NCBI RefSeq assembly: GCF_024223415.1
Contig: NZ_CP100501.1
Source of the DNA: Escherichia coli
GTDB taxonomy: Bacteria > Pseudomonadota > Gammaproteobacteria > Enterobacterales > Enterobacteriaceae
Direction: 5' to 3' (one strand)
DNA: 64,000 nucleotides
A program made the position numbers and the translations under genes. Positions 18,795-39,136 of this stretch are shown in pieces. The stretch's first letter is position 1, and each line of letters starts with the position of its first letter. Under the pieces are notes generated by a model. That model was not told the DNA's origin. It saw only the letters and a list, made by a program, of their open reading frames with translations, and did not search any database.

Positions 18795-18861
18795 GGCATC
18801 GGTGACCTGAACCGCCCCGGGAATCCTGGAGACTAAACTCCCTGAGAAAGAGGTAAACAGA

Positions 18862-19203
18862 ATGACTAAAAATACTCGTTTTTCCCCCGAAGTCCGTCAG
18901 AGGGCGATTCGTATGGTTCTGGAAAGTCAGGGCGAATATGACTCACAGTGGGCGGCAATTTGTTCCATTGCCCCAAAGATTGGCTGTACACCGGAGACTC
19001 TGCGTGTCTGGGTACGCCAGCATGAGCGGGATACCGGAGGCGGTGATGGCGGGCTCACCACCGCTGAACGTCAGCGTCTGAAAGAGCTGGAACGTGAAAA
19101 TCGTGAACGCGCCGCAGTAACGATATCCTTCGCCAGGCTTCCGCTTATTTTGCGAAGGCGGAGTTCGACCGCCTCTGGAAAAAGTGATGCCACTGCTGGA
19201 TAA
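18862..19203 (+). CDS. IS629-like OrfA (C-terminus altered by frameshift)
   Basis: Identical to copy-2 OrfA through ..[10 protein letters not shown], then diverges. Confidence 0.75.
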
Positions 19204-20074
19204 GCTGCGTAAGCTGTACGGGGTCGGACCGGTATGCAGTGAACTACATATTGCCCCGTCAACGTATTACCACTGTCAGCAACAGCGACATCATCCTGAT
19301 AAACGCAGTGCCCGTGCGCAGCGCGATGACTGGCTGAAGAAAGAGATACTGCGCGTATACGATGGGAATCATCAGGTATACGGTGTGCGTAAAGTCTGGC
19401 GTCAGTTGTTACGGGAAGGAATCAGGGTAGCCAGATGTACAGTGGCGCGCCTCATGGCGGTTATGGGACTTGCCGGTGTTCTCCGGGGTAAAAAGGTCCG
19501 CACTACCGTCAGCCGGAAAGCCGTTGCCGCAGGCGACCGCGTAAACCGTCAGTTTGTGGCAGAACGTCCTGACCAGTTGTGGGTGGCTGATTTTACTTAC
19601 GTCAGCACATGGCAGGGGGTCGTCTATGTGGCGTTCATCATTGATGTGTTTGCCGGATACATCGTGGGGTGGCGGGTCTCATCGTCTATGGAAACGACAT
19701 TCGTGCTGGATGCTCTGGAGCAGGCGTTATGGGCCCGTCGACCGTCCGGCACAGTCCATCACAGTGATAAAGGTTCTCAGTATGTATCGCTGGCCTACAC
19801 ACAGCGGCTTAAGGAAGCCGGATTACTGGCATCAACAGGAAGTACTGGTGACTCGTATGACAACGCGATGGCGGAGAGCATCAATGGCCTTTACAAAGCG
19901 GAGGTAATACACCGTAAGAGCTGGAAAAACCGGACAGAAGTGGAGCTGGCCACACTCACGTGGGTGGACTGGTATAACAATCGACGATTGCTGGAAAGGC
20001 TGGGCCATATCCCACCGGCAGAAGCAGAAAAAGCTTATTATGCTTCCATCGGAAACGATGATCTGGCAGCCTGA
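19184..20074 (+). CDS. IS629-like OrfB (DDE transposase)
   Basis: 296 aa, IS3-family integrase core; near-identical to copy 2. Confidence 0.85.
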
Positions 20075-20116
20075 GTTCACAGATAAAACACTCTCCAGGA
20101 AACCCGGGGCGGTTCA

Positions 20117-20550
20117 GTAATACCGGTGATCTCGAGGCCCGTTTGCAGAAGAACGGGAGTGTTCGTTTCCGTGACCGTCGGACGGGAGAGTTTGTCTGTA
20201 CGGATTATGGTGACAGGGTTGTTTTCCGTAATCACCATGACCGCAATGCGCTGGCAGATAAACTGGATTTGATTGCACCTGTATTGTTTGAGCGTGATCC
20301 CAGAATGGGCTTTGAACCAGAAGGAAACGACAAACAATTTAACCAGGTCTTTGCTGAAATGGTTGCCTGGCATAATGTGACAGGCCGTACCGGTCACGAA
20401 GACTACAGGATTACACGACCGGATGTGGATCATCACCGGGAAGGAAGTGAACGCTACTACCGCGATTATATCGCGGCGAACAGCAACGATGACGCATCAC
20501 TGCCTCCGCCGGAGCAGGATAAACGCTGGGAACCGCCATCTCCCGTATGA
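20117..20550 (+). pseudogene. 3' portion of an unknown gene truncated by IS629
   Basis: Reading frame is open from the IS629 right end; no start codon context. Confidence 0.4.
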
Positions 20551-20603
20551 CCTGTGTCCCTTAGCGAAAATCTCGTAGCTTCTCTCTCAATGAGGGCGGG
20601 TAT

Positions 20604-20738
20604 TTGACATCCTCCACGCCCTAAGGACGTGGGTTCCTGCTTCAACGGGCGGCATCCGTCATCCGCCAATACATTGAATAGCAGCAGACACCTGGTTAGG
20701 TGGAAAACAGCGCTTTATATCCCCGTTGAAGGACGGGG
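20604..20738. repeat. 135-bp structured direct repeat, copy 1 (copy 2 at 29292-29426)
   Basis: About 97% identical copies 8.7 kb apart, each containing several hairpins (CCACG..CGTGG, GGCGG..CCGCC, CCCCG..CGGGG). Confidence 0.85.
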
Positions 20739-37200: not shown

Positions 37201-37704
37201 GCTGAGTCATGGAAGTCAAAAGGGTTTACGGTATCTCTGGAAGCAGGATATTCATGGAAGGCTGGAGAGTTTACCGACAATTACAAGGGAAGTCATGAAT
37301 GGTATGTTCAGCCGCAGCTTCAGGTTGTCCGGATGAATGTAAAATCAGACAGACATCGTGAAAGTAACGGAACCAGTATTGAAAATACCGGTAACGGAAA
37401 TATTCTCACTCGCCTGGGAGCGAGAACATGGTTTGTCAGTAAAAACGGTAAGAATTCACGGTATGCAGTTCCTCTCAGGCCATTTGTAGAAGTAAACTGG
37501 CTGCACAATAGTCGTGTTTTCGGCACCAGTATGAATGGTGTAAGTATTTACCAGGATGGGGCGCATAATATCGGAGAAATAAATGGTGGTGTTGTGGGAG
37601 TGATAACTCCAGAAGTGGTATTGCGGGCTGATGCAGGCATTCAACTTGGAGAGCATGGATACCGCAATGCATCTGCTATGTTCGGCGTGGAATATCGTTT
37701 CTGA
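34207..37704 (+). CDS. Type Va autotransporter (adhesin-like passenger, C-terminal beta-barrel)
   Basis: 1165 aa; signal peptide; Gly-rich repeats (GGNGxxG), pertactin-like passenger; terminal ..FGVEYRF aromatic end; low GC (about 38%). Confidence 0.8.
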   Translation: MNKNIRILQFLVSILYSVQSHFSGAQTIQLNGNGIPESITRSITGVDGNAALNISVPYKTSYTQNILSVESSINIKGGTSNTSIGGAGVYGENFTLNNNGSVWGGDGYNGGVAVSGNKISINNYRNVYGGNGLGGSGSSGGAGLSGDDIIVDNYRSIYGGDDLGGTGGSGVTGSNITVHNSGGIWGGNGVNGGDGINGSNLFITNDNMISGGYGIKQGGDAISGNQITLNNNGIVQGGYGPDGSCSVYGEDIHINNHGNISGSYNSQKDAYNTSIIFSAGYNSLDIYSDSVINGDIKLASIPVNGTNELIIKNINNATAINGGLMIGNGSSVYLSGKNIIFNGNISIDEDASMNLSAGNANVHANTITLKSDSWLNIDTSIKNWTQDYYTLLSSDTGISIADNSHIVQYNVLLTEGAESYVYTSLNDDDNKLISMLRWNNTKGMGYGTFNIEKDATLNIGVSLSDNLSPLLYDGWDGKSLTKSGNGTLILSATNNYTGNTEVKSGVLILAAPDALGRTEYLYLSRGAELDMNGYPQTISKLLTAAGSVLNIHGGSLILNNGGESAGTIAGDGSLNINGGMLDITGNNRNFSGVFTVNKGAQLAVSTADNLGTAFVDNYGTLTLNSTSAWQLTNNISGYGNVRKTGAGALNISDNAKWTGMTDIIQGTLILGNADSPVMLGSNQVIVEEQGKLSGFGGVAGNLSNSGIVDLTTYMPGNILTVGGNYTGRNGLILLQTETGGDNSKTDRLVIKGNASGRTRVAVTQAGGTGAETLNGIEVIHVSGNADNAEFIQTERITAGAYDYILKRGQGINSTNWYLISRKDIPVPQPEAVPENHDNNLRPEAGSYVASIAAANNLFVTNLYERQGQELYISHMTGEENEAGIWMYNKGKHNRWRDNSSQLRTRGNSYVVLIGGDIAQWSLNGTDRWHTGMMAGYGHNHNSTNALSTGYHSEGRMNGYTAGLYATWYANDETHNGSYLDSWLQYSWFDNHINGERLPAESWKSKGFTVSLEAGYSWKAGEFTDNYKGSHEWYVQPQLQVVRMNVKSDRHRESNGTSIENTGNGNILTRLGARTWFVSKNGKNSRYAVPLRPFVEVNWLHNSRVFGTSMNGVSIYQDGAHNIGEINGGVVGVITPEVVLRADAGIQLGEHGYRNASAMFGVEYRF

Positions 37705-37850
37705 TGACTCTTTACATTATGAACATTCTTCGCAATATATTGTTTATAAGGCATGGTTAGCTGGGGGAAGCGGAAAATATGAAGACAGTAATGATTTGAA
37801 CCGCCCCGGAAATCCTGGAGACTAAACTTCCTGAGAAAGATGTAAACAGG

Positions 37851-38177
37851 ATGACTAAAAATACTCGTTTTTCCCCCGAAGTCCGTCAACGGGCAGTTCG
37901 TATGGTTCTGGAAAGCCAGGGCGAATATGACTCACAATGGGCGGCAATTTGTTCCATTGCTCCAAAGATTGGCTGTACGCCAGAGACCCTGCGTGTCTGG
38001 GTTCGCCAGCATGAGCGGGATACCGGGGGCGGTGATGGTGGGCTCACCACCGCTGAACGTCAGCGTCTGAAAGAGCTGGAACGCGAAAATCGTGAACTGC
38101 GCCGCAGTAACGATATCCTTCGCCAGGCTTCCGCTTATTTTGCGAAGGCGGAGTTCGACCGCCTCTGGAAAAAATAA
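37851..38177 (+). CDS. IS629-like OrfA
   Basis: 108 aa HTH/leucine-zipper OrfA ending ..[14 protein letters not shown]. Confidence 0.85.
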
Positions 38178-38198
38178 TGCCACTGCTGGATAAGCTGC

Positions 38199-39044
38199 GT
38201 GAGCTGCAGTGAGCTGCATATTGCCCCGTCAACGTATTACCACTGTCAGCAACAGCAGCATCATCCTGATAAACGCAGCGCCCGTGCGCAGCGTGATGAC
38301 TGGCTGAAGAAAGAGATACAGCGCGTATACGATGAAAATCACCAGGTGTACGGTGTGCGTAAAGTCTGGCGTCAGTTGTTACGGGAAGGTATCAGAGTGG
38401 CCAGATGCACTGTGACACGTCTTATGGCGGTTATGGGTTTTGCCGATGTTCTCCGGGGTAAAAAGGTCCGCATTACCGTCAGCCGGAAAGCCGTTGCCGC
38501 AGGCGACCGCGTAAACCGTCATTTCGTGGCAGAACGTCCTGACCAGCTGTGGGTGGCTGATTTTACTTACGTCAGCACATGGCAGGGCTTTGTTTATGTG
38601 GCGTTCATCATTGATGTGTTTGCCGGATACATCGTGGGATGGCGGGTCTCCTCGTCCATGGAAACGACATTCGTGCTGGATGCACTGGAGCAGGCGTTGT
38701 GGGCCCGTCGTCCATCTGGCACCATCCATCACAGCGATAAAGGCTCTCAGTATGTATCGCTGGCCTACACGCAGCGGCTTAAGGAAGTCGGATTACTGGC
38801 ATCAACAGGGAGCACAGGCGACTCGTATGACAACGCGATGGCGGAGAGCATCAATGGTCTTTACAAGGCGGAGGTAATACACCGTAAGAGCTGGAAAAAC
38901 CGGACAGAAGTGGAGCTGGCTACACTCACGTGGGTGGACTGGTATAACAATCGACGATTGCTGGAAAGGCTGGGCCATACTCCCCCGGCAGAAGCAGAAA
39001 AAGCTTATTATGCTTCCATCGGAAACAATGATCTGGCAGCCTGA
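38199..39044 (+). CDS. IS629-like OrfB, N-terminus altered by deletion
   Basis: 281 aa, identical core to copy-1 OrfB but lacking the first approx. 15 residues. Confidence 0.7.
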   Translation: MSCSELHIAPSTYYHCQQQQHHPDKRSARAQRDDWLKKEIQRVYDENHQVYGVRKVWRQLLREGIRVARCTVTRLMAVMGFADVLRGKKVRITVSRKAVAAGDRVNRHFVAERPDQLWVADFTYVSTWQGFVYVAFIIDVFAGYIVGWRVSSSMETTFVLDALEQALWARRPSGTIHHSDKGSQYVSLAYTQRLKEVGLLASTGSTGDSYDNAMAESINGLYKAEVIHRKSWKNRTEVELATLTWVDWYNNRRLLERLGHTPPAEAEKAYYASIGNNDLAA

Positions 39045-39136
39045 GTTCACAGACAAAACATTCTCCAGGAAACCCGGGGCGGTTCAATATGGATACCAGC
39101 TGTTCACTTCCAGAGCGGGCTGTTACCCGCTCTGCG

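Follow-up and report, generated by a model that had tools for sequence, protein, structure and literature searches.

The insertion sequences (IS) of the IS629/IS1203/IS3411 isoform group, which belongs to the IS3 family, are about 1310 bp long, carry TGAACCGCCCCGG terminal repeats, have overlapping orfA and orfB frames with an ALIL frameshift pseudoknot (RF01497), and duplicate 3-4 bp of their target. Such elements can also be found in pairs at the ends of composite transposons, as in the citrate transposon Tn3411, which is flanked by direct repeats of IS3411, an isoform of IS629. The window analyzed here is a stretch of 64,000 nucleotides of Escherichia coli contig NZ_CP100501.1, and an earlier note on this DNA had described in it two IS629-like copies in direct orientation around 17.7 kb. 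Both copies are like the described group in their length, their terminal repeats, their overlapping orfA/orfB layout and their pseudoknot, but both are transposase-null (through deletions of 1 bp and 20 bp), both lack the target duplication, and the two belong to separate subtypes, about 6% apart. As a pair they are like a composite transposon in having direct IS629-family copies, intact outer ends and passenger genes, and unlike one in that a target duplication, a functional transposase and a second location are all missing, and the two IS differ both in sequence and in history. The two copies are very probably independent, non-autonomous relics which lie in direct orientation by chance, and which sit at old recombination joints of a mosaic accessory region, in an avian E. 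coli plasmid of the pGF60-A-like IncK2/Z kind.

The two copies were confirmed at these positions:

18808 to 20116, plus strand: IS629-family copy 1, 1309 bp, both terminal repeats intact.
37797 to 39086, plus strand: IS629-family copy 2, 1290 bp, both terminal repeats and orfA intact.

Repeat finding and pairwise alignment were used to locate the ends. Both copies start with TGAACCGCCCCGG and end with the complementary repeat, CCGGGGCGGTTCA. The DNA between them spans 17,680 bp (20117-37796), and no third IS629 sequence is present in the window beyond copies 1 and 2.

The copies differ from each other by 79 substitutions and 21 gap columns, which corresponds to 92.5% identity with gaps, a figure absent from the earlier note, and 93.9% without. 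They share 18 identical tracts of at least 25 bp, the longest of which is 75 bp. Because 79 positions differ, the copies were assigned to different IS629 subtypes; subtypes of IS629 have been reported to differ by 4-5% (PMC3271280). Compared with the intact 1310-bp element at the equivalent place in plasmid pGF60-A, which is annotated as functional, copy 1 has no substitutions and is missing only one base. Copy 1 seems to be a very recent knockout of a currently active IS629 subtype. Copy 2 is 4-6% away from every other element compared, and appears to be an old, diverged subtype, fixed between the adhesin gene aatA and the iron-uptake gene eitD and inherited with its 20-bp deletion. Identity to a RefSeq element labelled IS1203 family, which is not the ISfinder reference, is 95.0% for copy 1 and 94.4% for copy 2, and both values fall inside the published 4-5% subtype spread (PMC3271280). 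A copy-1-type IS629 that is 99.9% identical to copy 1 was also found in pMTY9803 (6179-7488), within aatA at the equivalent of window position 37132, where an alignment overlap suggests a short duplication. This insertion indicates that the copy-1-type subtype is active in this plasmid family.

Each copy carries a lesion, as the earlier note had described, and the second of them, given there as approximately 20 bp, is exactly that length. The first lesion and the two frameshift pseudoknots are located as follows:

19108 to 19109, plus strand: deletion of 1 bp (T) in orfA of copy 1, CGTGAAC-GCGCC, in a non-homopolymer context.
19142 to 19258, plus strand: complete ALIL frameshift pseudoknot of copy 1 (Rfam RF01497, 116.2 bits, model positions 1-117).
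38132 to 38218, plus strand: truncated ALIL pseudoknot of copy 2 (RF01497, 63.8 bits), with the second stem-loop largely gone.

The gathering score for RF01497 is 50. In copy 1, the deletion changes the C-terminus of OrfA: from codon 83 the last 26 residues are replaced by 31 out-of-frame residues, giving 113 aa in place of 108. Ribosomes enter the frameshift region out of register, and therefore OrfAB cannot be made. In copy 2, orfA is intact (108 aa) and the missing 20 bp follow position 38204 (38204/38205), near the orfA/orfB junction and 27 nt past the orfA stop. The deletion takes the orfB start and most of the second ALIL stem-loop, which uncouples orfB, so that no OrfAB transposase results from this copy either. 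The role of the pseudoknot in IS3411 frameshifting has been reviewed (PMC5009743). The orfA and orfB frames are recognizable in both copies, and their expression is predicted to be broken in both.

The earlier note had named sequencing error as an explanation that would undo its reading of the lesions. The lesions are not sequencing errors, because both recur in other plasmids. The 1-bp deletion allele is also present in pCh101 (Russia) and pLH10-b-1-A (Switzerland), and is absent, with orfA intact, in pGF60-A, pMTY9803 and pSCZP1. The 20-bp deletion is found in the aatA-eitD context in seven plasmids of the PLSDB database (pAPEC-O1-ColBM, pGF60-A and five others). Both lesions are inherited alleles.

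The copies are bordered by the following features, in addition to aatA to the left of copy 2:

17981 to 18807, minus strand: IS1414 (IS256 family) remnant, which ends at the left end of copy 1.
20117 to 20550, plus strand: nikB fragment (IncI-type relaxase), which adjoins the right end of copy 1.
39137 to 40324, minus strand: eitD (major facilitator superfamily transporter), which opens the eitABCD iron-uptake operon and lies to the right of copy 2.

The triplets next to the ends are ACC/GTA at copy 1 and ATT/ATA at copy 2, so that the pair as a whole lies between ACC (left) and ATA (right). A 3-4 bp target duplication was looked for at all four IS629 ends, in inner and outer combinations, and none was found; for the pair, the earlier note had said the same. 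The IS1414 remnant is 100% identical to IS1414 positions 541-1368 of pMTY9803, and its equivalent in pGF60-A is labelled "incomplete IS1414-family transposase" in RefSeq; the remaining part of IS1414 is nowhere in the window. On the other side of copy 1, the nikB fragment is annotated in pGF60-A as an incomplete relaxase NikB, and in pEF5-18-41_2 nikB is uninterrupted across this junction. Copy 2 is bordered on its left by the 3' flank of aatA. Its right flank is intergenic, on the side of eitD (which was named from the annotation of pAPEC-O1-ColBM, pGF60-A and others), and is uninterrupted in pACN001-B and pEF5-18-41_2, where it runs into a bacteriocin immunity gene. The four IS629 junctions represent four unrelated contexts, two of which are known uninterrupted in other plasmids. 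Since the four flank contexts are different, both copies are read as joints between unrelated sequences and not as simple insertions. The outer flanks of the pair, the interior of IS1414 and the intergenic DNA beside eitD, rebuild no known continuous site.

The nikB junction was seen in other plasmids as well. In pSCZP1 (4025/4026) and pACN001-B (6025/6026), an IS629 joins nikB at the exact nucleotide used by copy 1 (20116/20117), in the opposite orientation. The flank on the far side of the IS629 at nikB differs in the window, pSCZP1, pACN001-B and pCh101. In uninterrupted nikB, an IS629-end-like motif, TGAACCGGGCGG, lies 27 nt upstream of the junction. The nikB junction may be a targeted hot spot for IS629.

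Relatives of the region were searched for among 72,556 plasmids in PLSDB and 5,426 complete E. coli genomes in RefSeq, and no record in either covers at least 80% of positions 17000-41000. pAPEC-O1-ColBM matches window 30167-44908 at 99.9%, pGF60-A matches 9000-30280 at 99.55%, and pCh101 matches 18807-30280. In pSCZP1, a catabolic module named after fdrA, the cytochrome b562 gene cybC, an IS2 and aatA stand in the window order, without the ISEc8 element. The aatA locus of pAPEC-O1-ColBM is like that of the window in having ISEc8 within IS2, aatA, and copy 2 with its 20-bp deletion beside eitD. It differs in that the left end of IS2 in the window adjoins cybC and the fdrA module, whereas in pAPEC-O1-ColBM that end adjoins another flank (...ATCGTG) with no fdrA module before it.

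The IncK2/Z poultry plasmids pGF60-A (NZ_CP172186.1) and pCh101 (NZ_CP127318.1) are built from the same blocks as the window, at 99.2-99.96% identity. One block common to all three is IS1414 remnant-IS629-nikB fragment-fdrA module-cybC, and the other is ISEc8-aatA-IS629 (with the 20-bp deletion)-eit; pCh101, like the window, carries the 1-bp deletion. The window is in essence the initial 64 kb of an IncK2/Z plasmid that resembles pGF60-A. Window 1-6406 corresponds to pGF60-A 1-6408, window 6407-30166 corresponds to pGF60-A 30168 down to 6409 and is inverted, pGF60-A 30169-39523 (9.35 kb) is missing from the window, and window 30167-60519 corresponds to pGF60-A 39524-70000. Because of this inversion the two IS629 copies of pGF60-A are on opposite strands; they are on opposite strands in pCh101 too, and in neither plasmid, unlike the window, do they bracket the 17.7 kb.

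The pair was weighed on this basis as a possible composite transposon. The IS on both sides are of the same family and in direct orientation, although they are of different subtypes with 79 substitutions between them. For this pair no outer target duplication, no empty site and no second genomic context was found, and neither flanking IS supplies an active transposase, since neither can yield OrfAB. The earlier note had said that composite transposition was not demonstrated, which holds; the evidence argues positively against it.

The comparison with related plasmids that the earlier note had proposed did turn up inversion variants, and their endpoints lie at two IS2 copies, not at IS629. These copies, one of them split by ISEc8, are located as follows:

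5322 to 6400, minus strand: IS2 copy A (IS2 positions 1-1079, truncated), inverted relative to copy B.
30173 to 30280, plus strand: IS2 copy B, first 108 bp, with left end TAGACTGGCCCCC, preceded by TCTGC at 30168-30172.
30281 to 32722, plus strand: ISEc8 (IS66 family, 2442 bp) within IS2 copy B.
32731 to 33953, plus strand: IS2 copy B, remaining 1223 bp to the right terminal repeat.

The endpoints of the inversion between the window and pGF60-A are the left ends of the two inverted IS2 copies, at 6400 and 30173. The sequence TCTGC/GCAGA (6401-6405 and 30168-30172) adjoins the two left ends in inverted orientation. Both IS2 copies have retained their own single-nucleotide polymorphism (SNP) types, and a unique junction, GCAGA/TGTTCT, is present where the 9.35 kb are missing. 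The target duplication of IS2 is 5 bp, and because TCTGC has this size, an intramolecular event mediated by IS2 ends is favored over plain homologous exchange. On the basis of the 5-bp inverted duplication, the inversion was probably made by the IS2 ends. Copy-out-paste-in IS, IS2 included, are described as yielding inversions and deletions via inverted repeat-inverted repeat (IR-IR) junctions (PMC9333248).

Two routes to the inversion were considered and rejected. A homologous crossover in the first 108 bp of IS2 is insufficient: the copies keep their own SNP types from position 31 onward, the original 5-bp flank is still next to copy A, and those 5 bp have remained beside cybC as well. One replicative inversion within the molecule predicts a duplicated target at one left and one right end, while both ends here are left ends, and it also predicts an extra IS2 copy, of which none is present.

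From these comparisons we infer a direction and an order of events. Copy 1 joins the IS1414 remnant to the nikB fragment that leads into the fdrA-type module. A segment of about 24 kb between the two inverted IS2 left ends would have been inverted, with 9.35 kb lost, relative to the arrangement in pGF60-A and pCh101. This inversion and loss would have brought two separately travelling blocks together between the IS629 copies. What the earlier note had treated as a single cargo region is a mosaic: the 17.7 kb contains two more IS elements, and is made of one block of nikB fragment-fdrA module-cybC and another of IS2::ISEc8-aatA, which travel separately in other plasmids.

Several points weigh against reading the copies as independent relics at recombination joints. 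An intact IS629 beyond the 64-kb window could act in trans, and mobilization of the whole segment is chemically possible. The missing target duplications are weak evidence by themselves, because many genuine IS629 sites are without them; in O157 genomes a target duplication was found at just 21 of 47 IS629 sites (PMC3271280). The presence of TCTGC at two left ends is not explained by any one standard step of transposition or recombination, and a separate loss of 9.35 kb must be assumed alongside the inversion. Finally, either arrangement may be ancestral, and pSCZP1 has a window-like order without ISEc8.

Two further observations concern repeats of this kind. The IS2 of pSCZP1 between cybC and aatA (14079-14270), which is without ISEc8, has A-type SNPs at its left end, yet from IS2 on into aatA (window 32723-37882) pSCZP1 and the window share 99.3% identity. 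This IS2 is probably a chimera from recombination between two IS2 types. Separately, about 196 bp from the end of another IS3-family element forms an inverted repeat beside eitA (6406-6601 versus 43210-43405, 96% identical). A full copy of that element lies near 6412-7700, and the repeat is a further potential recombination site.

A more ambitious reading of the window has three parts, and that all three hold together is unlikely. It says that the window is a structural isomer of the IncK2/Z-ColV accessory region that had not been recorded before, that the ends of IS2 copies without their own complete transposase (copy A being truncated and copy B split by ISEc8) were used in trans for an intramolecular inversion-deletion, which left TCTGC as a 5-bp inverted duplication at the two left ends, and that aatA and the nitrogen module, which came to lie between IS629 ends as a by-product, could be mobilized together by an intact IS629.

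It is slightly less probable again, and unlikely overall, that the pair is an active recombination substrate, in which RecA crossing-over of the direct copies regularly deletes 19 kb and leaves variants at detectable frequency. In its favor, each of the direct copies is about 1.3 kb long and the two have 18 identical tracts of at least 25 bp in common, and IS629 exchange does shape this plasmid family, since pCh101 and pGF60-A differ to the left of the copy-1-type element. The IS629-mediated differences visible among these relatives, however, involve copy-1-type elements that are 99.8-100% identical, and not the 94% pair. A divergence of about 6% is expected to lower recombination strongly when mismatch repair works. 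With that divergence, and with no identical tract above 75 bp, copies 1 and 2 make a poor recombination substrate. Direct repeats give deletion or circle excision, never inversion. The earlier note had suggested that recombination between the copies could delete or invert the region; a RecA-dependent deletion is possible, and an inversion between these direct repeats is not. A synthetic query of the left flank (IS1414 remnant), one IS and the right flank (eitD) was used to search for the deletion product. The matches have one flank and the IS only, never both flanks, and the predicted product of copy 1 and copy 2, with its IS1414 remnant-IS629-eitD junction, is absent from the 72,556 plasmids and the 5,426 complete E. 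coli genomes.

There is only a slim chance that the segment behaves as a pseudo-composite transposon, in which an intact IS629 elsewhere in the cell moves the whole 20.3 kb (module, cybC and aatA). The terminal inverted repeats are intact at 4/4 ends, and the copy-1-type IS629 is clearly active in the family, with several near-identical copies per plasmid. Set against this, the pair has no outer target duplication and its outer flanks are unrelated, one being the interior of IS1414 and the other the intergenic DNA beside eitD. The 20.3-kb unit was found nowhere else, and the histories of its two ends differ, each being seen in other plasmids. The segment encodes no transposase in cis, and IS3-family transposases act preferentially in cis.

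Least likely of all is an assembly artefact, in which contigs were mis-joined across IS2 or IS629 repeats and the true order is that of pGF60-A: the inversion is bounded by IS2 repeats of about 1.1 kb, a typical site of assembler error, and the window has private indels of 1 bp (LysR) and 3 bp (permease), but the junctions are not simple repeat swaps (own SNP types, duplicated TCTGC, 9.35-kb loss, unique GCAGA/TGTTCT), and pSCZP1 independently has the fdrA module-cybC-IS2-aatA order.

Besides the nikB fragment, IS2 copy B and ISEc8, the DNA between the IS629 copies contains:

20603 to 20738, plus strand: left 136-bp direct repeat, upstream of the catabolic module, 98% identical to 29291-29426.
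21009 to 29189, plus strand: fdrA/yah-like nitrogen-compound catabolic module, from the RefSeq annotation of collinear plasmids.
29291 to 29426, plus strand: right 136-bp direct repeat, upstream of cybC.
29623 to 30012, plus strand: cytochrome b562 gene (cybC-like), from the RefSeq annotation of relatives.
34207 to 37704, plus strand: aatA, autotransporter adhesin gene of avian pathogenic E. coli (APEC), 3498 bp, 1165 aa.

The genes of the module are, in order, a cysteine hydrolase, DUF2877, FdrA, DUF1116/YlbE, carbamate kinase, a 129-aa allophanate-hydrolase-related protein, an NCS1 permease and a LysR regulator. FdrA (491 bits) and carbamate kinase (374 bits) both score above the NCBIfam cutoff. 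Within 21009-26973, the cysteine hydrolase is biuret-amidohydrolase-like and the small protein is like the C-terminal part of allophanate hydrolase. With this gene set, the module may serve to break down a nitrogen compound of the ureido or carbamoyl type. The LysR gene (28300-29189) has lost one G at 28933 (GG to G) and ends at 230 of 296 aa; it is intact in 6/6 relatives compared, and the frameshift in the window is a private mutation or a sequencing error. At 27005-27007, in an A-run, an AAA insertion relative to pGF60-A gives the NCS1 permease an additional Lys at its start.

The 136-bp repeat was found in 138 of the 5,426 E. coli genomes, only together with the module, which it brackets in the window, with a median of 2 per genome and usually two per plasmid. 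Single chromosomal copies of the repeat also exist, and the one inspected is upstream of cybC-IS2, beside a raffinose cluster, in an island resembling an integrative and conjugative element (ICE). This context may indicate the place from which the module and cybC were picked up. The idea that the repeats are a dispersed miniature element was rejected, as they are module-bound and their fold is no better than shuffled (z = -0.8).

The cybC-like gene matches NCBIfam NF011632 at 66 bits, which is below the cutoff. An uninterrupted equivalent of IS2 copy B carries the RefSeq label "IS3-like element IS2 family". The ISEc8 inside it has a perfect 8-bp target duplication, GTCTTAGG, at 30273-30280 and 32723-32730. 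In pSCZP1, pCh101, pACN001-B and pGF60-A, there is no ISEc8 at this IS2 position and 30280 joins 32723. IS2 copy B itself is without a target duplication, because its right flank is AAAAA. The aatA product has an autotransporter beta-barrel domain (TIGR01414, 320 bits), and the region is 99.9% identical to pAPEC-O1-ColBM. Dai et al described the aatA open reading frame of pAPEC-O1-ColBM in 2010 as 3,498 bp, downstream of eitABCD, and flanked 5' by an interrupted IS2 and 3' by IS629 (PMC2944236).

All components of the region and most of its adjacencies have already been described, and only this isomer is unrecorded. The feature is ordinary plasmid mosaicism, in a virulence and metabolic region that is well known from poultry E. 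coli plasmids and has been heavily rearranged. A like-named IS pair should not be read as a composite transposon when divergence, shared lesions and relatives tell otherwise. If the pair were mobilizable in trans, the adhesin gene and the catabolic module would move together, and nothing supports this. For the tracking of APEC/ColV-type virulence plasmids, the finding means that the accessory region exists in several isomers, with aatA and eit on one side and the fdrA-type module, cybC and the raffinose cluster on the other, and that it is reshuffled by IS2 and near-identical IS629 copies, not by the 94% pair.

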